A stretch of DNA of 64,000 nucleotides, taken from the NCBI GenBank assembly GCA_050747525.1, contig JBOGOC010000080.1, positions 18,294-82,293 on the forward strand. Reading direction: 5' to 3'. This DNA is from Candidatus Polarisedimenticolia bacterium (GTDB taxonomy: Bacteria > Acidobacteriota > Polarisedimenticolia > JACPZX01 > DASXTC01). The translations under genes were made by a program, and so were the position numbers. The notes under the pieces were generated by a model. The model had not been told where the DNA came from and made no database searches. It saw only the letters and a list, made by a program, of their open reading frames with translations. Below, one piece after another: positions 13,805-64,000 of the stretch (its first letter is position 1; the number at the start of each line of letters is the position of its first letter).

Positions 13805-13806
13805 AC

Positions 13807-14937: not shown

Positions 14938-14938
14938 C

Positions 14939-42230: not shown

Positions 42231-42245
42231 GACAGGATGATAGCG

Positions 42246-45347: not shown

Positions 45348-47177
45348 TCACGTCGCCTTCTTAGGTACGAGCGTGTCGAACGCGAGCCCGCTCGAGGCCT
45401 CGCCGCGGCCGACCGAGCGCTGGTGCCCGAGCCAGGTCACGACGCGCCCTTGCCGCCACCGGCAGCGCTGCCAGCGCAGCTCGACCACCGTGCCGGCGCG
45501 CTCGACCTCCTCTTCCGCGATGATGTACCGGGCCGGCGGCGTGGCGTCCAGTCCTTCCATGAGGAGCTGGGTCCGCGGCTGGACCTTCCGGGGCGTCACG
45601 CCCGCGGTCCCTTCGAGAAGGCGCGGCATGGCCGCCCGCTGCAGCTGGATCTCCCGGTTGTCGCCTGGAACATGCACCGGGATGAACGGGATCCAGTGCT
45701 CCGGAACCGAGGTCATCAGCGAGTAGGCCACCTTCGCGTCGTTCGTGGGGGCCGGGTTCGGCGAGGCCGTCACCGCCCCCCGGTGCCTGGCGTGCAACTC
45801 GAGCGCCGCTTCACGCCCCCGGCGCGACGAGCCGTCCGTCAGCTGTACGACCGTCTCCACGCCCCACACCATGTTCGAGACTTCGTCCCGCACGAAGCTG
45901 ACCTCCTCCACGGCGGCGCTTTCCAGGAGGCCGACCGTGGTGGCGGGAACGAAGAGCCGGCCGTCCGCACCGCCCTTTTCCGCCAGCTGGAACATGCGCC
46001 AGCGGCGCGTCGGGGCGGCCGCGGGCACCGCTGGCTCGATCCAGAGGCGCTCGCCGAAGACATTGCTCACGGCCAGTCCGCGTATCTCGGTCAGCGAGCC
46101 GCCCGAGACGGGCACGCTCAGGGGGAGCAGGAACCAGTCATTCCCGAACACCAGCCCGAACTCGATGAGCAGCAGCTTCGAGATGTCGGTGGTGTCCGGG
46201 CTGATGTCGCCGAAGCTGGTCGCGCCCTCCTCGAACGCCCAGTGGCGCGTGTTGGGCATTCCTTCGAACTGAACCGCGGTGGGGAGCAGGGTCTTCACCA
46301 TGGTCTCCGCCTGGCTGGTCGGCGATTGTTCCCGCCGTGGCGCGGCCGCGTCGAAGTCGAACCAGTCGAGCCGTCCGCCGCGATACTCGCGCGCCGAGAG
46401 CGCGGCCGGCCGCACTCCCTTCGGCGCCGAGAGCTCCACGGCGTACTCGAGGTGACGCGGATCCCAGCAGGGCAGCTCGTCGGACTGGACGTAGAGCGCC
46501 CGCGCCCAGGCGAGAAACTCCGTGCCGAGGCCGTCGATGGCCGATTTCCCCGGGTCCGTGAGGCCGAGCCCGTCGGAGGCGAGCGCGCCTTGAAGAGACA
46601 GGTGCAGCAGGAGCGCCCCGCCGTCGATCGCCCGAGTGGCAACCGCAGCCAGCGTCTGCCACGCAGCGGCATGCGCGGTGACGGGGAAGTCTGCCTCATC
46701 GGCCGGATCGGGCGCGATGAAGCCGTATGAATCCCGGAAGGCGGGGATCCGCCCGCCGTGGCCGGAGGCCTCGAGCAGCCTCGACCACCTCCGGCCCAGC
46801 GCCAGGCGCACGTCGACGTTGTGCGGCCGGCCGCGGCGCGTGAGAGGCACGGGGCGGGCCTCGATCCGTGCCTCGAGCGGCAGATCCGGATCGTAAGGAC
46901 GCGCCGTCCCTTCGACCCCGCGCACCTCCGCGATCGGGTCCGTGCGCCACGCGACCTTGGCAGTGACCGGAGAGCCGGCGTCCTCGGCGTGGAACTCGCC
47001 CATCTGCCACTGCCTCGTGAGCAGCCAGAGCGGGTCCCGCACTTCGGCCTTCAAGGCCCGCGTGAAGTCCGGCCGGCGGGGCCGTCCCTCCAGCCGGTTC
47101 CACATCACCGTGGTCGGCTGGGAGACCTCACCGCGGAGGATCGGCTCCAGATGGTCGCTGACGATGTACTTGTTCAT
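45348..47177 (-). CDS. large conserved-looking hypothetical protein F (609 aa), no recognisable domain
   Basis: Internal ATG gives MNKYIVSDHLEPILRGEVSQPTTVMWNRLEGRPRRPDFTRALKAEVRDPLWLLTRQWQMGEFHAEDAGSPV. The start overlaps the upstream stop (ATGA at 47174-47177). No signal peptide or TM segment. Confidence 0.8.
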   Translation of the reverse strand: MNKYIVSDHLEPILRGEVSQPTTVMWNRLEGRPRRPDFTRALKAEVRDPLWLLTRQWQMGEFHAEDAGSPVTAKVAWRTDPIAEVRGVEGTARPYDPDLPLEARIEARPVPLTRRGRPHNVDVRLALGRRWSRLLEASGHGGRIPAFRDSYGFIAPDPADEADFPVTAHAAAWQTLAAVATRAIDGGALLLHLSLQGALASDGLGLTDPGKSAIDGLGTEFLAWARALYVQSDELPCWDPRHLEYAVELSAPKGVRPAALSAREYRGGRLDWFDFDAAAPRREQSPTSQAETMVKTLLPTAVQFEGMPNTRHWAFEEGATSFGDISPDTTDISKLLLIEFGLVFGNDWFLLPLSVPVSGGSLTEIRGLAVSNVFGERLWIEPAVPAAAPTRRWRMFQLAEKGGADGRLFVPATTVGLLESAAVEEVSFVRDEVSNMVWGVETVVQLTDGSSRRGREAALELHARHRGAVTASPNPAPTNDAKVAYSLMTSVPEHWIPFIPVHVPGDNREIQLQRAAMPRLLEGTAGVTPRKVQPRTQLLMEGLDATPPARYIIAEEEVERAGTVVELRWQRCRWRQGRVVTWLGHQRSVGRGEASSGLAFDTLVPKKAT

Positions 47178-50100
47178 GGCTCCGCCTCTGCGAGCGCCGA
47201 ATCGAGACTGTTGTTGAGCGCGAAGTTCAACATCGCCGTGATCGGGAACATCGTCACCGCCGAGAGCACGGCGGGGATGAGCGGACCGAGCGTGGTCTGA
47301 TCGATCTGGGCGGGCTCCACGGCGCGCAGCCGCGCCGAGTCCAGCGTCTCCCTCAACGCGTCCACCAGGTCCTCCCACCGCCACGTGCCATGGTGCACGG
47401 CGGGCGTCACGAGGAGGATCGCCTGCGGAGCCTCGGAGCCCGGCCGATCGAAGTGGAACGCCAGCCCGGTGGTCACCTCATCCGTGGGGACGACCTCGAC
47501 CCATTCGTCGAGCAGCAACCCGGAGTACGTGGCGTCCGGCCGCGTCGGATCGATCTCGGCCGACGGGCCGAAGTGTGGGGAGTAGAGGAGCCTGTCCTCG
47601 ACGAGCCGGAACGGGCCGCCGCCGGACGCTGTCTCCGGGAAGCGCAGGCCCAGCCAGGCATCATCCGCCCGGTGCGGGAACTGCAAGGCGTCGAGCGTCG
47701 GGGACCTGTCCGCGCCCAGGGCTTCCCCGAGCAGGATGGCCATCTCGAGGTGCCGCGCCCTCTCGCGCACCCGCGCCACGCCATGCAGCCAGTCCTCAAC
47801 GGGAAAGCGCGTGGCCTGCGGGCCGCTGGTGAGGTGGGCCAGCAGCTCCGCGCGGCGCGCCCAGACGTTTTCCCACTCGGCCAGCCGGTCTGACGAGAGG
47901 GTGAACTCCGGAAGCATGAGGAAGCTCTCGCCGAGGAGAGCGTGCCCGGCCTCGAGCGCCGCCGCCTGCGCCGGGTTCCCCGTCGCTGCCGCAGCCCGGG
48001 CCAGCGAGCTCGTGGCCGCGGCGATGCGCACGGAAATGTCGTCACGCAGCGCGATGGCTCGCTGCAGCAGATCCCGCGCCAGCGCAAGGACAGAGTCACG
48101 GAAAGGCGCGAGGTCGAGAACCGTGTAGTCCATGGCCTCGTACGTCGGCAGGAAAGCGCCAAGCGCCGTCAGCGTCGCGCCGGTCTGCGCCGCTCCGTCA
48201 CGAAGCGCGGTGAGGCTGATCAGGGCGGCGTCGAACCCCGCGCGGAGCGCGCCGACGGAGTCCTCGAGATCCGTCAGCAGGGGAGGCAGCGGCGCGATGA
48301 GCGATGTGGAAACGGTCCTCCCGGCCTGGATGAGGAGCGCGGTGCGCTCGGCGTCCGTGGCTGTCCCCGGCAGCGCGCCGAGCTCGGCCATGACCGCATC
48401 GTACTCCTGCTGCTTGCGCTGCCAGCGGGCCACGGCCGTGTCCAGCATCTCGCGCATCATACGCAATCGCGGCCGCCGGCCCTCCAGGCCCGCGGTCAAA
48501 CCGCCCGCGGGGAGCCCGAACGCGGCCACGGGCCGCGCCATCGCCGCGTAATCCACGAGCCACTGATCGAGGTGATCCCGGGCGGCGTCACGCGCCAGCT
48601 CGGGATCGATGCCGGCGGCGATGGAAGCCTCCAGTGTGCCGATGAAGGTCTCGATCGCAGGAAGCGTCGTCTGCATCTCCGCCAGAACCGCCTGCGGCTT
48701 GTCGGCGCGCACGATCATCGCAGTGCCCTCGGCCTTGCCGCCCTCGCTCGGCAGCGACAAATCGCCTGGCGTCAGCGCGCGCGAGCCCAGAACGAACCCC
48801 CGCAGGGAGCGCACCAGCGGCGCGAGCTCGAAGAGAGTCAGGCCGGTCACGCCGGCAGGCCTGTACTCGAGCTCGAACACCGCGTCGTGTCGAGGCACGG
48901 CCTCCCGCTCGGCGAAGTCGATCAGCAGCTCGTCGAAGCCGGCCAGCGCCTTCTCGCCCCCCGCGTCCAGCAGGTAGAAGAGGTCGACCGGCGCGAGCCC
49001 CAGGTCCGCCATGCTCGGCGTGAGCGACCCAGCCAACGTCGTTGCATGCCGCCATCCCACCCTGGCAAACACGGTGGCCGGATCGGGCATCTGGCCGGCC
49101 AGCCAGAGCGCCAGCGCCGGCTCGCCGAGCGCGCGGGGCCGGCCGCTCCCGGCATCGGTGGGCGCGAGCCCGCCTTGCAGGTGCAGCGCCACCCGGTGGG
49201 TCATTGTGCACCCTCCGCGTGGGGTCGAACAGACCTCCATCACCGGCGGATGAGTCCCCTTGGACAGGGCGTCGAGCGCCGCCGCCGCCCGGTCGTAGTT
49301 TCCGCGCACAACTTGATAGACGCCCTCCGCCACCCCGAGGTCGGCCACCGCGTCGGCGACGCTGCGCAGCTCGGCCACGCATCGGTCAAGGACCGCACCG
49401 ATCTCAGCCACGGTGGGCATCCCCGGCCCGGCCAGCTCGCCCAGCCCCGGCAGCCCCGACACACCATAGGGGTAGGTCATCGCGCCGGTTCGTTCGACGT
49501 GATCGAGGAAGGCCTCGCCATCGATCACGTTGCGGGCCTCCACCTGCGTGATCGGAGCCGCCACCTGGGTCTGTCGGTTCCGGTTTCCGATCAGCGGGAA
49601 CACCGCGCGGAGCGCGTAGATGACCCGATCCAGGAACAGGCCCGGCACCTCGTGCAGAGCCCGCTCGAGCCGGTAGCCGAGGAGCGCCCCCAGAGACTGG
49701 CCGTTGCGGATCCCATCGATCACGCGCAGGGCGAGGCGCACCCGCTCGGACGTCAGCTCGACCGCGAGCAGATCGGGCGCCCCCGGTGAGGCGTTGGCCA
49801 GATGTCCGCTGCGCAGGATGGCGGCGGTGACGGCATGGTCGAGCGACGGCGCGTGGATGTGGCCGGCGCTGGAGGGATCGCGCAGGAGCGGCGCGCCGTC
49901 AGGGTCTCCGAAAATCGCCGCCAGCTCGGGATCGAGCTCCACCGGCTCGGGCTCCTGCTCCTTCGGGCGCAGGTTCTCGAGCCAGCCGTACGCTCCGATG
50001 AGCAGGCCGCCCCGGCCAAAGCCGTTCGCCGTCTCCTGGCGGAGGTACGAGAGCTGGGCCGCCTGCATCCCCGCGCGCCACGCATCCAGCCGGTAGCTGA

Positions 50101-52780
50101 GGCAGTCGAGATGCTCGAGCAGCGCGCGCTCGAGCGCGGCGGTTCCGGCCGCCTTCAGCACGTCCAGCGCCGACAGCTGCTCCTCCAGGAAGGGCCGGCG
50201 CGAGGCCGGCAGCGAGGGGATGGCATCGCCCAGGCGCTTGCCCGGATCGCCGGTGATCGCGGGCTCGGGGAGGTAGAGGCTCTGCCAGCGGCTCCGGCTG
50301 CCTGCCGCGGCGGCCACGTCCATGAAGGCCGGCTCCTTCCGCTCGGCCTTGAAGGTCGCCTCAGGCAGCTGCAGCACATCGCGCCGCAGCGCGAGCGCGG
50401 TGTCGACGAACCCGAGGTCCAGCGCGTGGTGGAGCAGGAGGTAGAGAAGGGCCCGCGGCGGCGCGCCGTCGAACCCTTCCTGCCGGCGCAGGGCGTCATG
50501 GGAGATCCGGGCCGTGGTCTGCAGCCAGGCGATGTAGCTCAGCCCGTCGGCGCGCGTGGACGCGAGCGGCGCCGTCTCCGTGACCTCGGCCTGGACCAGG
50601 TCCCCCTTGAGGAGGCTCGGAGTTCCCAGGAAGATCTTCTCCAGGATTCCGGGCAGCTCGCCGTCGGGCGCGCCGCTCCATCCCAGATCCCCGAGCGCCT
50701 GCAATCCGGCCTGCACGTAGCGCCGGGCCGCCGTGGTGACGTTGAAGGAGGCCGGGCTCGTGGCGAACCCCAGCGTGTTGTAGTGCTGGGAGAAGCTCTG
50801 CGCGTAGCGCTGGTACAGCTCGGCAGATCCCGGATGCAGCCCCACGATATCGAGCAGCGTCTGGTGGGGATCCGCGCCCGGTGTTCCGACACGGGCGACC
50901 TGCGCGGAAAGCCCGCGCCACAGCGTTGCGGCCCGCTCCGAGAGTGTGTGGAGCGCGGACAGGAAATCCTGACCCGGAAGTCCCTGAGCCGCCGCGGTGC
51001 GCCCGTAATCCGGCTGCGACCACCAGCCCATCCTGGACCAGGCGGTGGCCGGCAGGATGCCAATGGGCTGCCGGCCGATACGCACCAGCGGCACGGTCCC
51101 GCGGCCGATGACGAAGCGGTTGAAGAAGGCCCGCGTGGCCCGCACGGTCGCTTCGGAGAAGACCGGCTCCATCATCTGCTCCATGAAGTAGCCGAGCGTG
51201 GCCGGCCAGAGCGCGATGTTCATGGCCCGGGCCTCGGCCTGATCGGTGCCGTTGTAGGCCGGGGACGCGCGCAGCACCTCCGGGTCGAGCCCCAGCATGC
51301 CCGCGAGCCAGGCGCCGTCCTTGCGGCGCTCCCACTGCGAGGGGTCGTCGCTGGCGTCGGTCTCGAAGAAGTGCCGGAAGCTCTCGTCGGGGTCCTCCCA
51401 CCAGCTGTACCCGGCGCTCGAGGTGTCCGTGTTGTTGGTCGCCCGTCCCTGCGGCAGGAGAGAGAATCCCTTGCGGCTCGACTGGTGATGCCGGATCAGC
51501 TCCGACAGCTCCGCCGCTCCTTCCGCGGCGTCGCTCGCGGATCGCACGCCCAGCACGAGCAGCAGGTCCAGCTCCGGCACCACGCCACGTTCGGTCAGGT
51601 TCACGCAGAAGGCCATGCCCCTGGCCCTTGCGTCCTCGAGGTCGACCGTCCAGCGCAGCGCCTCGGGCACCTGGAGATCCGCCTCGTCCGCGTTGAGCTG
51701 CTGGTCCCCCGTGGCCATGGGGTCCGGGCCCACCTGCAGCTCCGCCGGAACGGGCTCACCTACCTCGCGCAGCACCTCGGCTCCGTTGCGGAATCCCATC
51801 AGCACCAGCCGCTCCGGCAGCAGCCAGGCGCGCGCGGGCCGGGTCCACGCCTGCTGCGAGAGGGGCAAGGTGGCCGGGTCCGGCAGGCTCAGGAAAGCGA
51901 CCACGCCCTTCACCGACGGCCCGGGCTTCACGGCCGGGTCGCGCAGGTTGACCGGCGCGAGTTGCTGTTCCACCTGCGCCGCCCGCGCGTCCGAGAGATC
52001 CGAGGCGAGGTCGGCGAAGGCTTCGTCGCGCTCCGCGCCCCGCGACGACCAGACCCGCTCCCAGAAGCGGGCGATGGGCCCCTTCTCAGGATCGGGGACA
52101 AGCGACACGGTGCGCACGACGAGGATGTGATCTCCTGGCGCGGCCACCGGCTCGTCGTCCGGGTCGAGCGGCGCGATGCGCTGCGTGAGCCAGCGGGCTC
52201 GTCCAGCGCCATGGCTCCTCACCAGCGCGGCCCAGGCGGCGCGCCGGCCTTCCCGGGAGCCCCCCGCGCGCCACACGTGCGTCCAGTAGAGGGTGACGTT
52301 GTCCAGCTCCACCTGCGCGATCTCGGGCTGGAAGGTGTCCACGAGCACGTCGTCCGGGAAGACGCGCACACAGAGAAACCGCGCCGGAGCCCCGTTCACG
52401 GTGCGCGTCTGGTAGCGGGTCTCCAGCCGGAGCGGAAAGAGCGCGAAGGGGACGTCATCGGGCATGCGCCCGACCGCCCGGGGAGGATCGGTGAATGGGG
52501 CGAATCGATCCTGAGCCTCGACCAGGGTCTCGCGCGATCCGGCCCGGCCGGCCTCCGCCTCCTTCACGCGCTTCTCCGCTTCGCGGAGGCGCGCCTCGAG
52601 CTCGCGCAGCTCGGCGGCCGCGCCGTCGCCCCGCCGGCCGCGGGCGACCCTGGCCATGGCCTCGGCTCGACGGCGCAGGCGCCTGACCTCCTCGCGAGCG
52701 GCGATCAGCTCCGTGCGCGACCGCTCGGCGCGCTGGCTCGCCGCCCTGTAGGCCTTGCGCGCGTCATCCATCCCGGCCAT
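47174..52780 (-). CDS. giant hypothetical protein E (1868 aa) with N-terminal coiled coil, no recognisable domain
   Basis: ATG at 52780, 2 nt after the upstream stop. MAGMDDARKAYRAASQRAERSRTELIAAREEVRRLRRRAE...LEARLREAEKRVKEAEAG is the coiled coil, followed by VPFALFPLRLETRYQ. Composition is protein-like throughout. No signal peptide, TM segment or Walker A seen. Confidence 0.8.
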   Translation of the reverse strand: MAGMDDARKAYRAASQRAERSRTELIAAREEVRRLRRRAEAMARVARGRRGDGAAAELRELEARLREAEKRVKEAEAGRAGSRETLVEAQDRFAPFTDPPRAVGRMPDDVPFALFPLRLETRYQTRTVNGAPARFLCVRVFPDDVLVDTFQPEIAQVELDNVTLYWTHVWRAGGSREGRRAAWAALVRSHGAGRARWLTQRIAPLDPDDEPVAAPGDHILVVRTVSLVPDPEKGPIARFWERVWSSRGAERDEAFADLASDLSDARAAQVEQQLAPVNLRDPAVKPGPSVKGVVAFLSLPDPATLPLSQQAWTRPARAWLLPERLVLMGFRNGAEVLREVGEPVPAELQVGPDPMATGDQQLNADEADLQVPEALRWTVDLEDARARGMAFCVNLTERGVVPELDLLLVLGVRSASDAAEGAAELSELIRHHQSSRKGFSLLPQGRATNNTDTSSAGYSWWEDPDESFRHFFETDASDDPSQWERRKDGAWLAGMLGLDPEVLRASPAYNGTDQAEARAMNIALWPATLGYFMEQMMEPVFSEATVRATRAFFNRFVIGRGTVPLVRIGRQPIGILPATAWSRMGWWSQPDYGRTAAAQGLPGQDFLSALHTLSERAATLWRGLSAQVARVGTPGADPHQTLLDIVGLHPGSAELYQRYAQSFSQHYNTLGFATSPASFNVTTAARRYVQAGLQALGDLGWSGAPDGELPGILEKIFLGTPSLLKGDLVQAEVTETAPLASTRADGLSYIAWLQTTARISHDALRRQEGFDGAPPRALLYLLLHHALDLGFVDTALALRRDVLQLPEATFKAERKEPAFMDVAAAAGSRSRWQSLYLPEPAITGDPGKRLGDAIPSLPASRRPFLEEQLSALDVLKAAGTAALERALLEHLDCLSYRLDAWRAGMQAAQLSYLRQETANGFGRGGLLIGAYGWLENLRPKEQEPEPVELDPELAAIFGDPDGAPLLRDPSSAGHIHAPSLDHAVTAAILRSGHLANASPGAPDLLAVELTSERVRLALRVIDGIRNGQSLGALLGYRLERALHEVPGLFLDRVIYALRAVFPLIGNRNRQTQVAAPITQVEARNVIDGEAFLDHVERTGAMTYPYGVSGLPGLGELAGPGMPTVAEIGAVLDRCVAELRSVADAVADLGVAEGVYQVVRGNYDRAAAALDALSKGTHPPVMEVCSTPRGGCTMTHRVALHLQGGLAPTDAGSGRPRALGEPALALWLAGQMPDPATVFARVGWRHATTLAGSLTPSMADLGLAPVDLFYLLDAGGEKALAGFDELLIDFAEREAVPRHDAVFELEYRPAGVTGLTLFELAPLVRSLRGFVLGSRALTPGDLSLPSEGGKAEGTAMIVRADKPQAVLAEMQTTLPAIETFIGTLEASIAAGIDPELARDAARDHLDQWLVDYAAMARPVAAFGLPAGGLTAGLEGRRPRLRMMREMLDTAVARWQRKQQEYDAVMAELGALPGTATDAERTALLIQAGRTVSTSLIAPLPPLLTDLEDSVGALRAGFDAALISLTALRDGAAQTGATLTALGAFLPTYEAMDYTVLDLAPFRDSVLALARDLLQRAIALRDDISVRIAAATSSLARAAAATGNPAQAAALEAGHALLGESFLMLPEFTLSSDRLAEWENVWARRAELLAHLTSGPQATRFPVEDWLHGVARVRERARHLEMAILLGEALGADRSPTLDALQFPHRADDAWLGLRFPETASGGGPFRLVEDRLLYSPHFGPSAEIDPTRPDATYSGLLLDEWVEVVPTDEVTTGLAFHFDRPGSEAPQAILLVTPAVHHGTWRWEDLVDALRETLDSARLRAVEPAQIDQTTLGPLIPAVLSAVTMFPITAMLNFALNNSLDSALAEAEP

Positions 52781-52782
52781 GG

Positions 52783-55700: not shown

Positions 55701-56103
55701 CGGCGGCGGCCGTGGCCTCCTTGAACTCGGTTTCCTCCAGCACGATCAGTGACAGCCAGGGGAGCAGCCGTCGTCCCGAGGGGGGCGCAGGCGTGTAACG
55801 CCATGGGAAGTCCTCGTCGTAGAACTCGATGGCCGCGAGATAGTTGGGCTCGAAGTTGGTCACCCAGTTGGCCGGCTCCACGCGGCTGATCTGGGCCGCA
55901 TCGATGCCGATGATGTCGCCCGGCCCGTACAACGCGACGTTGCGATGGATGGGAACGCTCGCCGTCCCGCCATCCTTTCGCACGCCCTGGAGCTCGAGCG
56001 ACACATCCACCGACGCCCGCAGCGCCGACGCAGGTGCCGCGATCCGGTTGGCCAGGCCCGCGCGGACCCACGGCAGGAACGTGTAGGCGCCCGGTCCGCT
56101 CAT
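52783..56103 (-). CDS. giant hypothetical protein D (1106 aa) with a central TM hairpin, no recognisable domain
   Basis: The ATG at 56103 overlaps the upstream stop (ATGA). MSGPGAYTFLPWVRAGLANRI...YGPGDIIGID...FEPNYLAAIEFYDEDFPWRYTP. Two hydrophobic helices at aa ~612-655 (HLLTASLLLAALVALVVLLLGW / IGFIAGGALLAAGVAVGV). ETNQRFIEAYLVGLNHEFARELLWREYPTDQRGSCFRQFWD. Confidence 0.85.
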   Translation of the reverse strand: MSGPGAYTFLPWVRAGLANRIAAPASALRASVDVSLELQGVRKDGGTASVPIHRNVALYGPGDIIGIDAAQISRVEPANWVTNFEPNYLAAIEFYDEDFPWRYTPAPPSGRRLLPWLSLIVLEETEFKEATAAAGRPLSYVEVSVDFASVFPDSSEGWAWAHGHFNAELSASVVESSATAASQAAQSAIQAAPDGSCSRLLCPRKLKPTTAYHAFLLPAFESGRLAGLGHDPKPIFEDPANGLDSTWPAWGAYGASRPESAFFPFYYRWYFRTAERGDFESLVRLLKPKKVDSRVGHRDMDVTRPAPNITGINDPDLGGVLRLGGALRAPLETLAPADRAEHDKYDAWDSPSPHPFQEQLAAFVNLADSYQASGPSANTNNALDENVRTDPDPLVTPPIYGRWHALTERLLEQRDGSDVPNRTNWVHDLNLDPRWRTAAGFGTKVIQTDQENLMKAAWDQIGDVLEANRRIRQAQLAQAAGRRLHATHLTTAAGVSPGAMMLISSPMKARLISGGRTVRQRMLQSPMGLALTSTPMRRVIRPGGRVAKRLDLAGAGNAAALVARANVGEVSAAPPRIPPAKLLTPDALADAAAPKGTLDPVLARLGAWVGRHLLTASLLLAALVALVVLLLGWTPIGFIAGGALLAAGVAVGVRARAVALHADAADRMREDRQTPATVDAMPESSSFVFAPAPDPRTAAARPAVQPGGKDNPEALRFKEALRDQYQVIATSRKLGRLPKTVPLDLPRVAADVVKETRPDLTVRRWTLSGLSIPPRIRDQVGDAFAEVMAYPEFDIPMYEPLARISAELLVPNQHLVEPDSVTLMETNQRFIEAYLVGLNHEFARELLWREYPTDQRGSCFRQFWDVRKKIAAAPDPAAAREALKDIKPVHTWPSGADLGENDNREAGAEPEEELVLVIRGELLKKYPNAIISAQPAKWQMTNGRPDKSKERVLDESVAPMTPLYEARVAPDIFFFGFDLTVPRARGDDTVDDQPGWFFRIEEVPGDARFGFDESREAGSQINVWNDLAWADAAPGLQDGAPIRVAGIPALTLTEPAGDVIEKHPQWEQDRFVSLNDLSSAELAYITLQAPVIVAIHASELLSKSGA

Positions 56104-59100
56104 GCGGCTCGCTGCGCTTCGGCAGTGGGAATGACGTGCAGCGTGCCGGCCATCGCGGGGTTCGCCCTCAGGTGGGCCGCCAGCGCGTCCTTCGCCTTCG
56201 CCTGAGAGGTGAAGGTGACGGCTTCGGACAGGCGGGTGTTGTCTTCGAGCATGGCGATGGTGAAGCCCGGCTCGGTGGCGACGACCTTGTCCGCGAACGG
56301 CACCTTCGCTGCCCGGTTCGCCCGGGAGAGCACGGAACGCGAGGTGGCGTTGCTGCCCAGCATCACCAGGAACCAGGCCTTGCCGGCATCGAAGAAGCTC
56401 CGGGCATGCTGCTTGAAGTTGTTGTCGATGGTGACCAGCTCGTGGAGCACCATCCGCTTCACCGCGTGGCTGGTGCGCGTCTCCGAACCGGACACCGAGA
56501 CGTCCGCGCCGGCCACCTGCTTCTCGTATCCCGGGGAGGACAGCTTCGCCCCGGAGTCCATCTCCACGTACTGCGAGGTGGCGAAGGGCTCGAGGGCCGC
56601 GGCCTTGCGCTCCATCCCTGGCGTTGCGACGACGAGGCTCGCGCGCTCGATGTCGGAGACGGAGCGGTTGCCGATCTTGTGGATCGACAGCTCCAGCGGC
56701 ACCGCCCGCTGGCTGATCCGGAGCACCCCGAGAGGATGCAGCACCAGCTCCGCGGCCGCCTCGATGGCGCGCAGGCTCACCGAAAGGTGCGCCCCGGCAG
56801 GAGGCAGGGCGAGCCAGTTCTCGCGCTTCTCGAGCTCTCCCTGGAGAATCGGCATCGCCTCGATCGCCGCCAGCACCGTGTCCGCGCTCTCGCCCCAGGT
56901 GTGCGAGAACGGCACGTCGATGTCGAAGAAGAGGAGAGGGATGGATCCGATGCCCTCCACGTGCCACGGCGAGGTTCCTTCCAGCGCACCCTTGATCCGC
57001 ACCGAAAAGGCCCCGACGCCGAACACCCTCACCGAGAGGGAGCAGGAGAAGTCGACGATGAAGTGGAAGGGGGAGAACTGGAACAGCGCATCGAAGCCGA
57101 TGTGGCCTTCGATGGAAAACTCGTCCAGGCCGAAGAACAGCTCGGCGCGCGCGCCGATCTGCGCGGTGTTGGAGGTGACCGCCAGGTAACCCTCCAGCCG
57201 GATGCGTGCGTTCGGCTCATTGAGGATGGAGATGGCAACGCGCCGCGGGACGGGGAAGGGGAGAGGCGGCGGGTTGAACCTCGGGTGAAAGCCCCCCACG
57301 CTGAGAAGGAGGGCGGAATCGTCGCCCCCCCACGCGAAGAGAAAGCCCATCTCCCCATCCAGGGTGATGGACAGCACCCGGCTGTCGAAGAGCGCGGCGA
57401 ACAACCAGAGCCGGCTGCGGTCCATCTCCAGCGCGCCGACGAACCTGACCTGCACCACGACCAGCGGCTCCTCCTCGTCCGGGAGCACGCATCGGATGAC
57501 ACCCAGGATGGCGACGTTGCCCGGCGGCAGCTCGATGACCAGGCCGATCGTGGCGGTGACCAGGGGGGGCGTCAGCCAGGAGATCCTGGCCATCGGTCCG
57601 ATCAGGAACGTGCCCTGCTCGGGCGGGAAGTACCGCCGCATGTCGGAGAGGATCTGCGGCGCGTTGGCGATGACGTCGCTCGGGAACATTACGCTCTGCA
57701 CGGCGCCGGTGCGCACCCCTTCCGCCAGCTCCTCGAGGCGCATCGTCCGGTGCAGGCCCAGGAGCCCGCCGACCGCGTGCAGCGCGAATCCGAACCCCAG
57801 CTGGAAGGGTTTTCCGAACTCCGCGGTGACCATGATCAGGAGCGAGAAGCCGTCCGAGCCGTCCGGCATCCGGGTGGTGATGAGCCCGATGGCCTTCAGA
57901 GCCAGCACTTCGGAGAACACCAGCTCGAGCGCGCCGGCGTATTCGCCCTTCTCGTAGTCCAGGTAGAGGTAGCCCCCGCCCTTGACCATGTTGGCGTCGA
58001 TCACCAGGCCCACGCCCGTGGGCGGCTTGAAGCGCAGACGCAGGTCGACCGGCCCGAGCGGCGCGTCGGCCTGGCTCGAGAAGTCGAGCACGAGCTCCAC
58101 CCCCATCCGCTCCACGATGGCGGTGAGGGGCCCCAGGAGGGCGGTGATCCCGGCGGAGGCTTCGAGCGCGAGCGAGCCGTCGTCGCGGATCTTCAAGATG
58201 ATGTAGAGGGTGTCCAGGCGCGCCGCGCCCAGGTCCTGGTGCATGGGGATGGCGATCTCGAGGCCGCCGGCCGCCTTGAACACGATGCCCTGGCTCATCC
58301 TCCAGCAGAGCCCCAGGTCGAAGACGCCGCGCACCTCGGCGCGCGACAGCAGCGAGGCGAGGAAGCTGTCCGAATCTTTCGAGCCCAGGGTGAGCGTCAG
58401 CCCCTTGAGCTCCGCCGCGACGCTCGGATCGATGCTCACCTGGCCGGTGGTTCCGGCGCCGATGGTCAGCTCGGCCCCGATCCCGACGTCCTGGGCCGTC
58501 AGATGGACGAGGTCGTTGCCCCCCACGATGGTGAAGCCGCGCGCCTCGGGGTTGCGGTTCACCAGGAACGAGATGGCGCCCCCGATGGTGCCCATCTTGG
58601 GGGCCGCGGAGGACTCGAAGGGTGGCTTCCAGCGGAAGATCACGCCCCCGTCGAGCGCGATCGAGGACTTGAAGTCCATGCCCCAGAGGTCGTTGATCAG
58701 CACGCGCTGGTCGAAGTTGTGCGTGGTGGCGGCGCTGAGGTCCAGCATCAGCCCGGGCGGGGCTACGGAGCTGTCGCGGCTCCAGCGGAACGGGCTCACT
58801 TCGAAGAACGCGTCGCCGCCTGTCTCGCCGCGCCCGAGGGAGGTCCCCTCCCGGTAGAACGCCAGCATCCCGTCCATGAGCTCGCCCGGGTCGAACTGAG
58901 CGGTTCCCCATTTGTGGACCGCCGCCAGGTGCGCGGCGGCATCGCGGATCAGATCCCTGATGCGCTCGAGGCGCAGCTCCTTCTGGACGTAGCGCGGCTC
59001 GTGGAGCTGGCCGGTCGGCTGGACCACGCGCCATTCGATGAGGCCGAGGAGCTTCAGCAGGTACACCAGCCGGGGAGAGTGCCCCTCGAGGACGCTGATG

Positions 59101-59510
59101 ACCAGGTAGCCGAACGCCCGTCGCGCCAACTGCGGGGCGAAGGCCTGCACTGCGGTGAGATCCGGCACCGGCAGTGCCGTCGCCGCGGCCTCGATCCGAT
59201 CGACCAGCTGCGCCACCGCGTCGCCGAAACGATAGACCCCTTCGAGGAGGTGGACGAGGGCCTTCGCCAGATCGACTTCGGCCCCGCTGGCCAGCGCCGC
59301 GTCCAGCTCGTCCGCGGCAAGGGAGAGCACCACCGCGGCATCCGCCAGCGCCGTGGCGGCGGCCTTGACGGCCGGGTCGACGACCAAGGCATCGGGCATC
59401 TGGAGGCCGAGCGGTTCGGTGTCGAGGTCGACGGTGAAGCTGGACACTTCCCCGAGGGCGCGCGCGATCCACGCCCCCAGCCGCGCGATGTAGATCTCGT
59501 CTCCAGCCAT
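56100..59510 (-). CDS. giant hypothetical protein C (1136 aa); reminds me of the DUF6603 family (recollection only, unverified)
   Basis: ATG at 59510, 5 nt after the S8 peptidase stop. MAGDEIYIARLGAWIARALGEVSSF..., then a helical N-terminal third, then a beta-rich body (YAGALELVFSEVLALKAIGLITTRMPDGSDGFSLLIMVTAEF, LLLSVGGFHPRFNPPPLPFPVPRRVAISI). No signal peptide or TM segment. Confidence 0.85.
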   Translation of the reverse strand: MAGDEIYIARLGAWIARALGEVSSFTVDLDTEPLGLQMPDALVVDPAVKAAATALADAAVVLSLAADELDAALASGAEVDLAKALVHLLEGVYRFGDAVAQLVDRIEAAATALPVPDLTAVQAFAPQLARRAFGYLVISVLEGHSPRLVYLLKLLGLIEWRVVQPTGQLHEPRYVQKELRLERIRDLIRDAAAHLAAVHKWGTAQFDPGELMDGMLAFYREGTSLGRGETGGDAFFEVSPFRWSRDSSVAPPGLMLDLSAATTHNFDQRVLINDLWGMDFKSSIALDGGVIFRWKPPFESSAAPKMGTIGGAISFLVNRNPEARGFTIVGGNDLVHLTAQDVGIGAELTIGAGTTGQVSIDPSVAAELKGLTLTLGSKDSDSFLASLLSRAEVRGVFDLGLCWRMSQGIVFKAAGGLEIAIPMHQDLGAARLDTLYIILKIRDDGSLALEASAGITALLGPLTAIVERMGVELVLDFSSQADAPLGPVDLRLRFKPPTGVGLVIDANMVKGGGYLYLDYEKGEYAGALELVFSEVLALKAIGLITTRMPDGSDGFSLLIMVTAEFGKPFQLGFGFALHAVGGLLGLHRTMRLEELAEGVRTGAVQSVMFPSDVIANAPQILSDMRRYFPPEQGTFLIGPMARISWLTPPLVTATIGLVIELPPGNVAILGVIRCVLPDEEEPLVVVQVRFVGALEMDRSRLWLFAALFDSRVLSITLDGEMGFLFAWGGDDSALLLSVGGFHPRFNPPPLPFPVPRRVAISILNEPNARIRLEGYLAVTSNTAQIGARAELFFGLDEFSIEGHIGFDALFQFSPFHFIVDFSCSLSVRVFGVGAFSVRIKGALEGTSPWHVEGIGSIPLLFFDIDVPFSHTWGESADTVLAAIEAMPILQGELEKRENWLALPPAGAHLSVSLRAIEAAAELVLHPLGVLRISQRAVPLELSIHKIGNRSVSDIERASLVVATPGMERKAAALEPFATSQYVEMDSGAKLSSPGYEKQVAGADVSVSGSETRTSHAVKRMVLHELVTIDNNFKQHARSFFDAGKAWFLVMLGSNATSRSVLSRANRAAKVPFADKVVATEPGFTIAMLEDNTRLSEAVTFTSQAKAKDALAAHLRANPAMAGTLHVIPTAEAQRAA

Positions 59511-59515
59511 CAGGT

Positions 59516-61669
59516 CTACTTGTGGCTCTCCAGCGCGTCCGCCATCCCGCTGCCGAACGCCCGATCGTGCGCCGTCCCGGTCAGGCCCACGCCTTTTCGA
59601 TTGGCGGCGGCGGCGATCAGGGCGTTGCGGACACTGGTCGTGTTCAGCGCGGCATTCTTGTCCAGCATCAGGGCGACGATGCCGGTCACCATCGGCGCCG
59701 AAATGCTTGTTCCACTCTTCTTGGTGAAACGGACACCCGAGGTCCACGGCGGTACTTTCACGCCCGTGCCGACATTGGTGTCCACGCCCTCCGCCGACGA
59801 GATGTCCACACCCGGCGCGGCGAGCTCCGGCTTGGTGGCGATGAGAGGCTTGGAGCCGGGCGGATCCGAGAAATCTCGCAGCGGTCCGCGGGAAGAGGAG
59901 CTGTCGATCTTGTGGTCTGCGTGGTTATAGGACCCCACAGTGATCACGTGCTGTCCGTAAGTGTCGACGACCGAGAACTCCGACGTGATGGCGGCCGGGA
60001 CCGCCGGATCAAGGGGGTCGAGTGGGTTGGCCCTCTGCGTGGCGATCGTGAAGAAGGCAGAGCCCCCGAAGCCCCAGCCCGCTTCAGAACCCATGAAGAA
60101 GATTTCGGTTCCCCCGGGGGCCGTGATCAGCACCTCGTAGATACCTTCGATGTATGTGACGGTGGCGCCAACGACCTTTGGTGTGACGAGGAGCTGGAAC
60201 CTGTGCCGGCGCACCGTCCCGCCGGACGGATGTGGCACCGAGGGATTACTTTCGTGCCGGGCCACCACCCGGTGGACGTTGCCTCCGCTCGTAACCTCCG
60301 TGAGAGAAGGGGGCGACCCGGCGTTGAGCTGCAGCTTCTTCTCCAGCTTCTGTCCGACACCCAAGTCCACGTTGAAGAGCATCTGGTGCGGGAGGCGCAG
60401 CGAGAACTTCACCTTGTCGAAGTTACGGCGGTACCAGAAAGAAGCGACCATGTCCGGATGGTGCAGGCTGGTAGCGCAGTTCTGCCACGTGTGGCGGGGT
60501 CCTCCGAAGCGGCGCTCCTTGAGCTCCAGCGGCACGATGATCGTTCCGCCTGCCGGGACCTTGATCCTCGCGACCTTGCTATCGGCCATGTCGCCCGTGT
60601 TGCCGGCCGCCTTCACGATGATGGCGCCCTTGGGGAAATTGAGGTCCCCTGCCGGCTTGCCGGGATCCATGAGGCTGTCCAGAAAGATCGAGTTCTCGTC
60701 CAGGCCGTCGCCGGGCTTGTGTGTGTCGCCGAAGCTCATGTTGATCACGACGGGCTTGCCCAGCTCCTTCGCCGTCCGCAGGCAGTAGATCACGGCGTCG
60801 CGGAGCCGTCTGCGCCAGTCCACTTCGAGTCCCATACCCGTTGCCAGCTTGAACCTGATGGTGTCGGGAACGTCGAGAAGCTTGACCGCGATGATCTCGG
60901 CCTCCGGGGCCACGCCGACCCTGCTGGCGTTGGCTCCGGTGACCGCCGGGAACAGCGTACCCCCCGCCGCAATGCCGGCGACGTGCGTGCCATGGCCGCT
61001 GCAGTCCTTGTGCGCGATCGCCACCGTGCTGTTGAGGGCAATGTTGATATCCCCGGCGCTGAACTCGACTCCGTACGTTCCGCCTGGGAGGAGAAGGTCC
61101 TCTCTCGGGCAATCGTCGAGGCTGGCCGGGTCCAGGCCCTGGTCCCAGATTCGCCTGATCCGTGTCCTGGGTGGGTTCAGGCTCTTCATGAACATCGGGT
61201 GCGTGACGTCGATTCCGGTGTCGAGGATCGCGACGAGCACACCTGTCCCGGTGCCGTCGGGCACGCTGGTGAGCTGGCCTGACGCGACAACCGCGTGCCA
61301 CAGTCCATCGCCTCCGAGGCCCGCGGTACCGGGAGCGGAAGCGATAGCGGCCGAAGAGGCTCGCGCCTTGATGTCAGGGACCGCCCTGTCCAGGGTGGCG
61401 TGAGGCCGGCCTCCCGTCGACATCCACAGCACCCCGGGGTGCGCCACGAGGGCGCTGATGTCCTTGAAGCGCACCACCCCCATCGCCTCGTCGTCGAACA
61501 CCGCATGGGTCTCGAACCCGAGGGCCTCGATCGACGCCAGGTCCCCCTCGAATCGCAGCAAGCAGGTGATGCCATCATCCGGGAGGCGTTCGCGCTCCTG
61601 TTCCCAGGCGCGCAGGGTTATGAAAAGGTTGTTGTCCAGCTTCTCTAATCCGCTGTCAGGATCGGGCAT
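59516..61669 (-). CDS. S8-family (subtilisin-like) serine peptidase, leaderless, 717 aa
   Basis: Catalytic triad motifs VAILDTGIDVTHP (Asp150), SGHGTHVAGIAAGG (His226) and KSGTSISAPMVTGIVALM (Ser655), with the oxyanion AAGN (Asn357). There is no signal peptide. The N-terminal ~100 aa are propeptide-like (I9-type beta-alpha pattern). Confidence 0.93.
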   Translation of the reverse strand: MPDPDSGLEKLDNNLFITLRAWEQERERLPDDGITCLLRFEGDLASIEALGFETHAVFDDEAMGVVRFKDISALVAHPGVLWMSTGGRPHATLDRAVPDIKARASSAAIASAPGTAGLGGDGLWHAVVASGQLTSVPDGTGTGVLVAILDTGIDVTHPMFMKSLNPPRTRIRRIWDQGLDPASLDDCPREDLLLPGGTYGVEFSAGDINIALNSTVAIAHKDCSGHGTHVAGIAAGGTLFPAVTGANASRVGVAPEAEIIAVKLLDVPDTIRFKLATGMGLEVDWRRRLRDAVIYCLRTAKELGKPVVINMSFGDTHKPGDGLDENSIFLDSLMDPGKPAGDLNFPKGAIIVKAAGNTGDMADSKVARIKVPAGGTIIVPLELKERRFGGPRHTWQNCATSLHHPDMVASFWYRRNFDKVKFSLRLPHQMLFNVDLGVGQKLEKKLQLNAGSPPSLTEVTSGGNVHRVVARHESNPSVPHPSGGTVRRHRFQLLVTPKVVGATVTYIEGIYEVLITAPGGTEIFFMGSEAGWGFGGSAFFTIATQRANPLDPLDPAVPAAITSEFSVVDTYGQHVITVGSYNHADHKIDSSSSRGPLRDFSDPPGSKPLIATKPELAAPGVDISSAEGVDTNVGTGVKVPPWTSGVRFTKKSGTSISAPMVTGIVALMLDKNAALNTTSVRNALIAAAANRKGVGLTGTAHDRAFGSGMADALESHK

Positions 61670-61768
61670 CCCTGCTCATCCGTGGGGACTCTTGAGGTTC
61701 CGGGGGGGCCACTGTGGCTCCGTCATCTCCCGGGCAGGGGGAAGTTGTGCGGCGGTACAGTAGGTGCC

Positions 61769-61798
61769 TCTATACGCCTACCCTGCAGACGATGTCAA
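61769..61798 (-). promoter_or_regulatory. candidate sigma-70-type promoter between the two S8 genes
   Basis: The minus strand reads TTGACA - 18 nt - TATAGA, inside a visibly lower-GC 189-bp spacer, about 95-125 nt upstream of the ATG at 61669. Confidence 0.4.
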
Positions 61799-61858
61799 TC
61801 CCCTTGCAATGGGACGCTCCGTCTCATGAGCCATTTTTCGTCATGTATGCGCTCCTGC

Positions 61859-63997
61859 CTAGGGTGGCGGCGGTGGTTTGTGGCTCTCGAGCGCGTCCGC
61901 CATTCCGCTTCCGTACGCCCGGTCGTGCGCAGTCCCTGGAGCCGCCGGGTCCACGCCGGGTCGGTTCTTGGCGGCCTTGGTCAGAAGAGTACGGACCTGG
62001 GTGGTGTTCAGCGACGGATTCTTGTCCAGCATCAGGGCGATGACCCCGGTCACCATGGGCGCTGCCATGCTCGTCCCATCCTTCATGGTGAAACGGACGC
62101 CCGCCCTCCACGAAGCAGTGCGCACGCCGGGGCCGGCATTACTGTCTGCACTTTGCGCCGAGTCGATGTCCACGCCCGGGGCGGCGAGCTCCGGCTTCGT
62201 GGCGATGGGGGGCCTTGGAGGATCGGAGTAATCACGCAACGGTCCGCGGGATGAGTTCGCGAAGATCGTGTGATCGGTGTCGTCATAGGCCGCCACCGTG
62301 ATCGCGTGCTGTCCCAGGGTATCGGTTGCGGAGAACTCCTGTGTGATGTTGACCTCTTGAGGGAGTGGTTGGCCGTCGGCCATCGTGCCGGCGATCAGCA
62401 TCGTGACTGCAGTATTGGCAGCCCAGGCTTGGCGATCGCCCATGAAGAAGACCTCGGTGCCGGCGGGGGCGGTGATCCGCACCTCGTAGATCCCCGTGAG
62501 GTAGGTGACCGTTCTGCGACGCACCTTCGGTTCGACAAAGAGAGTGAGCACGTGACGGCGCACCGTCCCACCTGATGGATGTGGCACCGACGGCTCGACT
62601 CCGTGGAGGCAGGCGACCTTGTGGTTGGCCGACCCGGACTGAAGCTGAAGGATGGACAACGATGGTGGAGGCCCTGGGTTCAGTCGCAAGCTCTGGATCA
62701 GGTGCCCGCCCACTCCCAAGTCGGTGCTGAAGGTCGTCTGGTGCGGGAAGCGAAGCGCGAACTTCACCTTGTCGAAGTTCCGCCGGTACCAGAACGTCGT
62801 GCGCAGGAAGGGGCTGTGCACCCTGTCCTTGCCGTTTTTCCATGTGGTGTTGGCCCCCTTGCGGTCGTCCTTGATCTCGATGGGCACGATGATCTGTCCG
62901 GCTTGCGGGACGGTGATCCGCGCGGCCTGGTCATCCGCGACGTTGGGGACGCACGTCACGAGGATGGCGCCGGTTGGGAAATTCATCTTCTTCGTGTCCA
63001 CTGGCTTGCTCGGATCCAAGCGAGCGTCCAGCCAGCGCGAGTTTTGGTCAAGGCCGTCGCCGGCCTGATGGATGGAGCTGACGCTCATGTTGATCACCAC
63101 GGGCTTCTTCAGGACGTACTTGGCCGTCCGCAGGCAGTAGAGCACTGCGTCCCTCCATCTTCTGTCCCAATCCACCGCGTGCCCCATACCCGCCGCCAGC
63201 TTGTACCGGATGGGCTCGGGGTTGTCTTCAAGCTTGACCGCGATGATGTCGGCCTCCGGCGCCACGCCAACCCTGCTGGCGTCGCCTCCCGCCGGGAACA
63301 GCGGCCCCCCCGCCGCGATCCCGGCCACGTGAGTGCCGTGGCCGTTGGAGTCCTGGTGCTTGATCGGAGCTCCCCCGTTGAGGGCCGCCTCGATCTCGAA
63401 GTTGTCGAACTCGACTCCATAGGTTCCACCTGGATTGAGCAGGTTCTCATCCGGGCAATCCTGGCGCCTTGTAGGAACGAGCCCCTGGTCCCAGATCCGC
63501 ATGATTCGCGTCACTTTGGGAGGGCCGAGGCTCTTCATGAACATCGGGTGCGTGAAGTCGATCCCGGTGTCGATGATCGCCACGATCACGTCCTTCCCGG
63601 TGCCATCGGGCACGCTCTTGAGCGTGCCGAACGCGTCACCAACCGGGTGCCAGACTCCGTCGCCTCCGACGGCATCGGCCTTGGAGGCTCGGGCCTTGAT
63701 GTCCCGGACCGCTGTGTCCAGGCTGATGCGGCGCGGCTCTCCCGTTTCCATCCAGAGCACCCCGGGGTGAGCCGCCAGGGCGCGGAGGTCGCTGAATCGC
63801 ACCGCCCCCATCGCCTCGTCGTTCGACACCGCGTGAGTCTCGAACCCCAGCCCCTCCATGGGCGCCAGGTCCCCCTCGAATCGCAGTGTCAGGGTGATGC
63901 CGTCGTCCGGCTGGCGTTCGGGCTCCTGTTCCCAGGCCTGCAGGGCCATGAACAGGTCGGCATTCAGTTTCTCCAGTCCGCTGTCAGATGGGGGCAT
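61859..63997 (-). CDS. S8-family (subtilisin-like) serine peptidase paralog, leaderless, 712 aa
   Basis: VAIIDTGIDFTHP, NGHGTHVAGIAAGG and KDGTSMAAPMVTGVIALM. It is collinear with the 59516-61669 product along its whole length (roughly 60% identical by eye). The ATG at 63997 is 3 nt from the window edge, so upstream context is unknown. Confidence 0.93.
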   Translation of the reverse strand: MPPSDSGLEKLNADLFMALQAWEQEPERQPDDGITLTLRFEGDLAPMEGLGFETHAVSNDEAMGAVRFSDLRALAAHPGVLWMETGEPRRISLDTAVRDIKARASKADAVGGDGVWHPVGDAFGTLKSVPDGTGKDVIVAIIDTGIDFTHPMFMKSLGPPKVTRIMRIWDQGLVPTRRQDCPDENLLNPGGTYGVEFDNFEIEAALNGGAPIKHQDSNGHGTHVAGIAAGGPLFPAGGDASRVGVAPEADIIAVKLEDNPEPIRYKLAAGMGHAVDWDRRWRDAVLYCLRTAKYVLKKPVVINMSVSSIHQAGDGLDQNSRWLDARLDPSKPVDTKKMNFPTGAILVTCVPNVADDQAARITVPQAGQIIVPIEIKDDRKGANTTWKNGKDRVHSPFLRTTFWYRRNFDKVKFALRFPHQTTFSTDLGVGGHLIQSLRLNPGPPPSLSILQLQSGSANHKVACLHGVEPSVPHPSGGTVRRHVLTLFVEPKVRRRTVTYLTGIYEVRITAPAGTEVFFMGDRQAWAANTAVTMLIAGTMADGQPLPQEVNITQEFSATDTLGQHAITVAAYDDTDHTIFANSSRGPLRDYSDPPRPPIATKPELAAPGVDIDSAQSADSNAGPGVRTASWRAGVRFTMKDGTSMAAPMVTGVIALMLDKNPSLNTTQVRTLLTKAAKNRPGVDPAAPGTAHDRAYGSGMADALESHKPPPPP

Positions 63998-64000
63998 CGT

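Follow-up and report, generated by a model that had tools for sequence, protein, structure and literature searches.

Positions 45348–63997 of a 64,000-nt stretch of DNA from a Candidatus Polarisedimenticolia bacterium (contig JBOGOC010000080.1; the whole stretch is termed the window) hold one copy of a widespread and horizontally mobile system. The system consists of an invariant core of four large genes, termed A, B, C and D, together with one or more genes that encode degradative enzymes. In the window these enzymes are two S8 subtilases, termed S8a and S8b. The core represents ~14 kb of tightly conserved coding sequence. Hundreds of species, belonging to over a dozen phyla, carry it, and it also occurs in haloarchaea.

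An initial annotation, made from the sequence alone, had described the segment as a six-gene module and had proposed that it is an undescribed multi-protein system tied to proteases. The latter proposal holds, as there are no matches to known machines and the synteny extends across phyla. The description as a six-gene module is correct in part: the four-gene core A-B-C-D is invariant, but the unit is better written as 4 + n, with the S8 genes as variable fillers of the position upstream of A.

Six consecutive co-directional open reading frames on the minus strand fill this segment of the window (~69% GC) and are listed in Table 1. The GC content at third codon positions (GC3) is 0.82–0.92 in the six open reading frames, and thus these frames are the coding ones. 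S8a and S8b are separated by a gap of 189 nt, and the stop codon of S8b is 5 nt ahead of the start of A. A and B are joined by an ATGA overlap (−4 nt), there is a 2-nt gap between B and C, and C and D are joined by a second ATGA overlap (−4 nt), so that the start of D overlaps the stop of C. The open reading frames, their lengths and the four junctions from S8b onward are all as the initial annotation gave them, and every motif quoted there is present in the translations. Proteins A, B, C and D add up to 4,719 aa, i.e. ~510 kDa per set. Hydropathy analysis showed no N-terminal hydrophobic leader in any of the six proteins, in keeping with the earlier statement that all of them lack a signal peptide. 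The start of S8a at position 63997 is 3 nt from the edge of the window. The next gene upstream on the source contig is a divergent gene encoding a TPR-CHAT protein, and thus the cassette ends at S8a.

Table 1. Components of the cassette in the window and the hydrophobic segment at the centre of B.
Feature	Position	Strand	Description
S8a	61859-63997	minus	712 aa; Pfam Peptidase_S8, E = 3e-36; first filler of the variable partner slot
S8b	59516-61669	minus	717 aa; paralogue of S8a, 61% identity
A (DUF6603)	56100-59510	minus	1136 aa; Pfam PF20248, E = 2e-124; first core gene
B	52783-56103	minus	1106 aa; unannotated family
B central hydrophobic two-helix hairpin	54130-54291	minus	residues ~605-658; from hydropathy
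C	47174-52780	minus	1868 aa; unannotated family
D	45348-47177	minus	609 aa; unannotated family; last core gene

Conservation and spread of the four-gene core

Homologues of B were gathered from a 90% clustered collection and by an HMMER scan over 1.84 billion representatives. The 90% clustered collection contains more than 2,700 homologues of B and more than 3,000 of D; all of the named ones are "hypothetical" and none has a Pfam domain. The B family comprises 5,485 clusters at 50% identity (E <= 1e-3), and 2,506 at E <= 1e-30. To locate complete loci, GTDB was scanned with one genome per species. The 185,579 species genomes yielded 402 pattern-confirmed loci, and the best 80 of the 402 were studied.

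The hosts of these best 80 loci are Myxococcota-like bacteria, Planctomycetota, Chloroflexota, Actinomycetota, Alpha-, Beta- and Gammaproteobacteria, Desulfobacterota, Bacteroidota, Verrucomicrobiota, Acidobacteriota, Nitrospirota, Chlorobiota, Cyanobacteria, Heliobacteriaceae and Eremiobacterota. More distant copies are present on 13 plasmids, four of which are haloarchaeal megaplasmids. In all, A-B-C-D loci come from 12 or more bacterial phyla, in addition to the haloarchaeal megaplasmids.

The order A-B-C-D is invariant wherever the contig reaches, both in the 80 genome loci and in the plasmid loci. Thus the synteny of the four large genes, which the initial annotation had put forward for checking, is conserved across phyla. 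The junctions are conserved as well: A and B overlap by 4 nt in 45 of 68 loci, and no more than 10 nt separates C from D in 53 of 55. No gene 3′ of D is conserved across loci. Since the order A-B-C-D is constant and nothing conserved follows D, the invariant unit is one of four genes. This arrangement is far beyond chance. Identity of the core is 40%–65% across phyla, and in the S8 clade it is >59% across five phyla.

The distribution of the cassette is patchy. It occurs on plasmids and beside recombinases, and one copy is bracketed by tyrosine recombinases. Horizontal transfer has carried the cassette among Bacteria and into Archaea. A Salinigranum marinum plasmid (locus L089; NZ_CP100462.1, positions 334581-354217) encodes a PhoD-like enzyme, DUF6603, B, C and D. 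This archaeal locus carries the whole cassette, and thus the system crosses the domain boundary. Its C protein is enlarged to 2322 aa and is annotated "BGTF surface domain", and its D protein has a C-terminal lamin-tail domain (LTD). Haloarchaeal versions in general show the LTD on D and the enlarged C with the BGTF surface domain annotation.

One copy on a Streptomyces plasmid has a gene for a PG_binding protein just before it and an RHS gene nearby. Another locus adjoins a TcA-like gene.

A phage origin was considered and rejected, as the scan of IMG/VR was negative. A 40-kb sequence deposited as "Bacteriophage sp." from a human faecal sample (locus L088; MT835531.1) contains genes resembling B, C and D, together with the end of one resembling A. 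The entry is unverified and unannotated and has 76.6% GC. It looks like a misclassified bacterial contig and was not counted toward a phage origin.

Enzymes of the upstream slot

Genes in the position upstream of A were assigned by GC3, in order to set aside antisense open reading frames in GC-rich DNA. A same-strand gene is present directly upstream of A in 65 of the 66 loci that have enough upstream sequence. The slot was tallied in 67 loci, including the window. It is filled by trypsin/NAL1-like (S1) genes in 23 loci, by putative Cys/His peptidase genes of classes c2/c9 in 12, by S8 genes in nine, by M64-like genes in seven, by class c11 genes in five and by Kelch/galactose-oxidase-like genes in three; seven loci have singletons and one has none. 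The partner is in most cases a peptidase, and the peptidases come from several unrelated clans.

The commonest partner has ~500 aa and matches Trypsin, Trypsin_2, Peptidase_S32 and the NAL1 N- and C-terminal domains; it is often present as 2–4 tandem copies. The M64-like partner (~870 aa) displays a Peptidase_M64/M6-like motif, the Kelch/galactose-oxidase-like partner has a C-terminal transmembrane helix, and the c11 partner (~690 aa) is of an unassigned family. Single cases are a tyrosinase, a phospholipase D (PLD)/cardiolipin-synthase-like protein, a beta-lactamase-like protein and, in an archaeon, the PhoD-like enzyme. An SCO1-like copper chaperone is encoded in one locus.

The c2 partner has ~370 aa (e.g. 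L022:5455-6561 and L047:5403-6506) and shows an invariant His and an invariant Cys about 59 residues apart, in the motif GSHAxDEG ... HxKGCxxG (alignment A8). This pattern suggests a clan-CD-like cysteine peptidase. A caspase-like assignment of c2 is unconfirmed, as there is no Pfam, NCBIfam or PDB profile match. The c9 partner (~700 aa) is tied to c2 by a weak profile match.

Apart from this weak c2-c9 match, hhalign comparisons showed no domain common to the partner classes, and visual comparison showed no common C-terminal motif. The classes are interleaved on a neighbour-joining tree of B, and thus the partners have been swapped repeatedly. The interleaving, together with the lack of a common domain, points to non-homologous displacement in a fixed slot.

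In the window, S8a and S8b score 125.6 and 126.6 bits, respectively, against a Peptidase_S8 cut-off of 21.8 bits, and Peptidase_S8 is the sole Pfam family matched by either protein. Both belong to this family by the hidden Markov model match and by an Asp/His/Ser triad with the oxyanion Asn; the residues are D143/H220/N303/S643 in S8a and D150/H226/N310/S655 in S8b. In each protein the match is in two stretches with an insert of ~250 aa between them. In S8a an N-terminal region of ~130 aa precedes the split catalytic domain. Neither the insert nor this N-terminal region is assigned to a domain family. S8a would be a zymogen-like subtilase of cytoplasmic type.

The idea that the S8 genes are unrelated neighbours, which would make the six-gene module a coincidence, could draw on the gap between S8a and S8b and on the absence of S8 from most related loci. 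It is already contradicted by the co-occurrence data and is considered highly improbable. The S8 subfamily of the window (1,225 matches) shares contigs with B and D homologues down to 39% identity and is found beside the core in five phyla, commonly as 2–3 tandem copies. S8b ends just ahead of A, and the slot is filled on the same strand in all loci but one. In addition, pairwise divergences of partner and B are correlated (rho = 0.58 for S8 partners and 0.33 for S1 partners; the pairs are not independent, and p-values for these correlations are invalid). The two S8 genes of the window are genuine components of the system, but of its variable module. The initial annotation had asked whether S8 genes are always adjacent to the large genes. 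They are not, since S8 is an interchangeable filler; it is the presence of some peptidase upstream that is nearly constant. A functional link between protease and core is very likely, and the comparative data are silent on its direction.

Some S8-type partners of 788–929 aa in other loci (L079:4205-6571, L038:4152-6521 and L045:3771-6560) have a C-terminal extension of ~100 aa, which matches the post-protease region of the trypsin/NAL1-like partners. The extension could be an adaptor domain common to the two classes. It is not present in S8a and S8b of the window.

Core proteins and the variable centre of B

Protein A matches DUF6603 (PF20248) with 416 bits against a gathering score of 27. The match covers profile positions 2–497 of 502 and A residues 424–983, and A is thus a member of this family. 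DUF6603 is a family of no known function, and a literature search found no paper that mentions DUF6603 or PF20248. The N-terminal region of A is helical, and after it comes a long beta region that is highly conserved and rich in Gly and aromatic residues. C is mostly helical with a charged coiled-coil N-terminus. In B the N- and C-terminal halves are conserved, and the centre between them is variable. The earlier statement that the four large proteins have no recognisable domain stands for B, C and D, which gave no match in Pfam, NCBIfam, PADLOC or PHROGs, but not for A.

Searches of A–D against PDB sequences with phmmer and family profiles gave only coiled-coil and low-complexity noise, and the A family profile against PDB gave coiled-coil noise alone. 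Mutual comparison of A, B, C and D by hhalign showed no paralogy or common domain, the sole self-match being the coiled coil of C. AlphaFold2 models were made from family alignments for B (predicted local distance difference test, pLDDT, 77; predicted TM-score, pTM, 0.57) and for D (pLDDT 75, pTM 0.73). Foldseek gave no significant match for the B model (best E 0.67 against PDB and 1.0 against BFVD), nor for the D model against PDB (best E 0.22). A comparison with characterised machines, which had been recommended with the initial annotation, thus gave no confident match, either with profiles, in PDB or with Foldseek on the B and D models. The weak, non-significant matches of the B model include TcA channels and the alpha-pore-formers AhlB/SmhB; these probably reflect long helical hairpins in the model and are only a lead.

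No conserved P-loop or FtsK-type ATPase was found in A–D. The sequence GLTDPGKS in D (residues 205–212, window positions 46563-46540) resembles a Walker A motif by chance, as it is kept in only two of 60 homologues.

The most strongly conserved N-terminal motifs are YTFLPWVRxG in B, and DPLWxLTRQWQxGEF and a PNTRHW...NDWFLLP block in D. They are located in low-pLDDT segments of otherwise confident models. This fits a role as inter-subunit arms of a large assembly.

The centre of B in the window displays a feature that the initial annotation had overlooked. Residues ~605–658 reach a Kyte-Doolittle hydropathy (KD19) maximum of 2.96, and the ~45-residue hydrophobic span is interrupted by a short Gly/Pro turn. 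The charges flanking this hairpin are without strong bias. Among the 81 closest homologues of B, the position of the hairpin is kept in 99%, but its sequence is not kept. The hairpin is predicted to be a membrane anchor or a membrane-inserting element. As there is no leader sequence, both large halves of B would be cytoplasmic.

Other B homologues have different sequences at the hairpin position. One (L094:3460-7488, P0395) has WD40 repeats, another (L091:14001-19127) has FG-GAP/VCBS repeats, and in P0509 there are repeats that by eye resemble CarboxypepD_reg-type Ig-like domains. P0399 (locus L093) has nothing at this position; four trypsin-like genes and A-B-C-D are still present in that locus. 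The central position of B is thus a hotspot at which anchoring or binding modules are inserted, the membrane hairpin being particular to one clade. An insertion hotspot of this kind is typical of a sensor or input position.

Relation to known systems and chromosomal surroundings

The closest described logic is that of the protease-effector modules, in which bacterial gasdermin, Pepco/Trypco, EACC1, metallo-beta-lactamase (MBL)-fold and alpha/beta-hydrolase effectors are found with proteases (Evans et al., bioRxiv 2025, PMC12642450). In these modules the proteases found with a given partner family are of trypsin-like, caspase-like or S8 type depending on the clade, and the effector is activated by site-specific cleavage (PMC12642450). 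The system described here is similar in several respects. A non-protease partner lies beside a dedicated protease, with conserved adjacency and a protease class that varies by clade. The proteases include trypsin-like and S8 types and, here only putatively, a caspase-like type, and the divergence of partner and protease is correlated. The proteins are leaderless, and both kinds of system are enriched in actinomycetes, cyanobacteria and other complex bacteria. There are also differences. The partner here consists of four giant proteins and not of one small or medium-sized effector, and A–D are not homologous to any of the listed effectors (by Pfam, NCBIfam and PADLOC, and by fold for B and D). 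M64-like metallopeptidases and non-peptidases also occupy the slot, and the enrichment in defence islands was not seen here (102 flanking proteins, no background model). Membership in the protease-effector defence group cannot be claimed, given the non-homologous partners, the lack of sensor fusions and an association with defence islands that is not evident.

By analogy with these modules, and as the likeliest of the explanations considered, we tentatively suggest that the cassette might be a protease-coupled conflict module in which ABCD serves as sensor, scaffold or substrate. The translationally coupled proteins A–D would probably form one large complex. The zymogen-like cytoplasmic protease and the ABCD complex would act on each other, in either direction, with ABCD as the sensing and scaffolding part and the variable central insert of B as an input or localisation element. 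In the window the membrane hairpin of B would hold the complex at the inner membrane. The outcome may be proteolytic activation of a toxic activity, possibly with membrane damage through the hairpin of B, and a role in defence or cell death.

Several observations favour a conflict module of this type. The core order is invariant, the junctions are near-abutting, the slot is filled in 65 of 66 loci and the partners are swapped. The co-occurrence of S8 down to 39% identity, the correlation of divergence (rho = 0.58), the intact catalytic residues and the absence of leaders also point, at the level of sequence, in this direction. The insertion hotspot in B, the patchy distribution, the plasmids and recombinases and some defence-type neighbours (TPR-CHAT, C14-helicase, Mrr and SNF2 at some loci) are consistent with it. 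The pattern of pairing resembles that of proteolysis-gated defence effectors (PMC12642450).

Other observations weigh against the conflict module. The flanks of the loci are heterogeneous and, by Pfam, mostly of the housekeeping type; only ~3–4 of 102 flanking proteins match PADLOC models, and thus the support from defence islands is weak. Core conservation of 40%–65% across phyla is unusually high for an arms-race gene. Library scans and the P-loop check did not find an NTPase, a nuclease or another known effector or sensor domain in A–D. S8a and S8b, unlike proteases of the described modules, have no recognisable sensor fusion (STAND, TPR), and a minority of the partners are not peptidases (tyrosinase, Kelch/galactose-oxidase-like, PLD-like, PhoD-like and beta-lactamase-like proteins). 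In addition, a hairpin-type segment is present in only 59 of 137 full-length B representatives. Since ~57% of the representatives are without it, membrane insertion is not a general effector step, and the hairpin was ruled out as a universal effector element. Domains of extracellular type, such as LTD, FG-GAP and PG_binding, which are present in some variants, likewise do not favour a conflict module.

A different explanation is that ABCD, as the conserved apparatus, is a toxin or delivery complex that acts at the surface or after release, and that the upstream enzymes are swappable cargo or accessory toxins, in the logic (not the homology) of Tc toxins, extracellular contractile injection systems (eCIS) and type VI secretion systems (T6SS). 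Some variants have gained domains of surface or adhesion type, namely FG-GAP and Ig-like CarboxypepD_reg-type domains in B, LTD on D and the "BGTF surface domain" annotation on C, which would suit this explanation. The slot often holds 2–4 tandem paralogues, as in toxin arsenals, and the leaderless partners come from families that are typically secreted (S8, S1, M64, tyrosinase, galactose-oxidase-like, PLD-like, PhoD-like and PG_binding). One locus is beside an RHS gene and one beside a TcA-like gene, and the strong conservation suits a large assembly with many interfaces. Tc (ABC) toxins are likewise multi-gene sets of very large leaderless proteins in a fixed gene order that need no NTPase. 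They also have variable enzymatic components and receptor-type domain insertions, and long helices with a hydrophobic tip in one subunit recall the B model, whose non-significant Foldseek matches include TcA channels and AhlB/SmhB.

The comparison with these machines does not extend to their components. A–D have no VRP1, TcA_TcB_BD, RHS or other Tc domain in Pfam; Foldseek matches of the B model to XptA1, XptA2 and TcdA1 have E-values of 0.8–4 and TM-scores of ~0.06; and the number and sizes of the subunits differ from those of Tc toxins. No sheath, tube, baseplate or spike match, as expected of eCIS, T6SS and other phage tail-like particles, was found (Pfam and PHROGs; BFVD for B; IMG/VR contigs). 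There is thus no significant similarity to Tc, eCIS or T6SS components by sequence, or by fold for B and D. Genes for secretion, lysis or immunity are not conserved nearby, the partner classes have no common docking motif or domain, and an intracellular location is suggested by the WD40 inserts and by the lack of leaders. Nitrifiers and haloarchaea are among the hosts, and it is not obvious what the target would be in their case. On balance a toxin or delivery complex is considered unlikely.

A third explanation, which corresponds to the first hypothesis of the initial annotation, is that ABCD is a structural or housekeeping assembly of the membrane or envelope (a scaffold, a remodelling or repair complex, or a coat or matrix) that is matured or cross-linked by a protease or oxidase. 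The very high conservation, the uniform protein lengths, the housekeeping-type neighbours and the fixed stoichiometry to which translational coupling points are in accordance with this. So are the protein-modifying partners (peptidases, tyrosinase and copper-radical-oxidase-like proteins, with the SCO1-like chaperone at one locus) and the conserved N-terminal motifs of B and D, whose low-pLDDT segments are as expected of inter-subunit arms. Few species carry the system, though (402 of 185,579 genomes), its phylogeny is dominated by horizontal transfer, with plasmids and mobile elements, and the hairpin is missing in over half of the B family. Frequent turnover in the partner slot would be odd for a dedicated maturation enzyme. 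We regard a structural assembly as quite improbable. The probability that remains falls to an explanation not yet imagined.

Two further systems share the presence of an S8 protease. The anti-phage system IetAS/IteAS combines an S8 peptidase with an ATPase. The leaderless S8 in a conflict-type operon is a similarity, and there are weak PADLOC and NCBIfam matches to IetS/IteS; these amount to 14 bits against a cut-off of 900 and cover the catalytic core only. There is no IetA-like ATPase in the cassette and the partners are unrelated. In type VII secretion, the S8 protease mycosin is encoded with large membrane-associated proteins, and the best NCBIfam match of S8a is T7SS_mycosin; the score for TIGR03921 is 78 bits against a cut-off of 279. 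No EccB, EccC, EccD, EccE, FtsK-type ATPase or WXG substrates are present here.

As far as tested, the system is outside every known kind in the sequence of A–D and in the fold of the B and D models, and only the pairing with a protease resembles something known. There is in our estimate an even chance that A–D make up a large machine of a new kind, with ~0.5 MDa per protomer set and no NTPase, which occurs in both Bacteria and Archaea and has no relative, by sequence or fold, among described secretion, toxin, immune or cytoskeletal apparatus. The output of this machine would depend on the interchangeable protease, and its input or target would be set by the swappable domain of B. If it is an immune or cell-death module, a multi-subunit class would be added to the proteolysis-gated systems, which were recognised only recently; as a delivery or toxin complex, it would be a nanomachine of a new type, whose enzymatic payloads are exchangeable and whose inserts are of receptor type. 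In both cases, function would be assigned to several large families of hypothetical proteins, and the constant link to interchangeable proteases provides an immediate experimental handle.

In the window, D is followed after 42 nt by a gene for a Reg_prop/Y_Y_Y hybrid histidine kinase (1019 aa) and then by one for a LuxR-type response regulator (216 aa). The two genes may be co-transcribed with the cassette in this genome. As parts of the system they were rejected (positions 41580-45305, minus strand), as they are not conserved in other loci.

On the other side of the cassette, just past window position 64000, the TPR-CHAT gene (L006:1-1888) is on the opposite strand, divergent from S8a, and encodes a protein of >816 aa with TPR and CHAT (caspase-like) domains. 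CHAT-TPR proteins are typical of conflict systems. No such gene is conserved beside the cassette elsewhere.

The rest of the window encodes transporters, an M17 aminopeptidase and large repeat proteins. A resistance-nodulation-division (RND) efflux operon, with OEP, an HlyD-type adaptor and an AcrB-type pump, is at positions 12119-18025 (plus strand), and a GAF-GAF sigma-54 activator is at 9794-11848 (plus strand). As such ordinary chromosomal genes are nearby, the cassette is outside any obvious island in this genome.

Two other giant proteins are encoded on the minus strand: a 1562-aa protein with Dicty_CTDC repeats (36814-41502) and a 2033-aa protein with DUF11, MopE-type Cu-binding and TSP3 repeats (19606-25707). 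These two are probably located at the surface or secreted, with no relation to the cassette.

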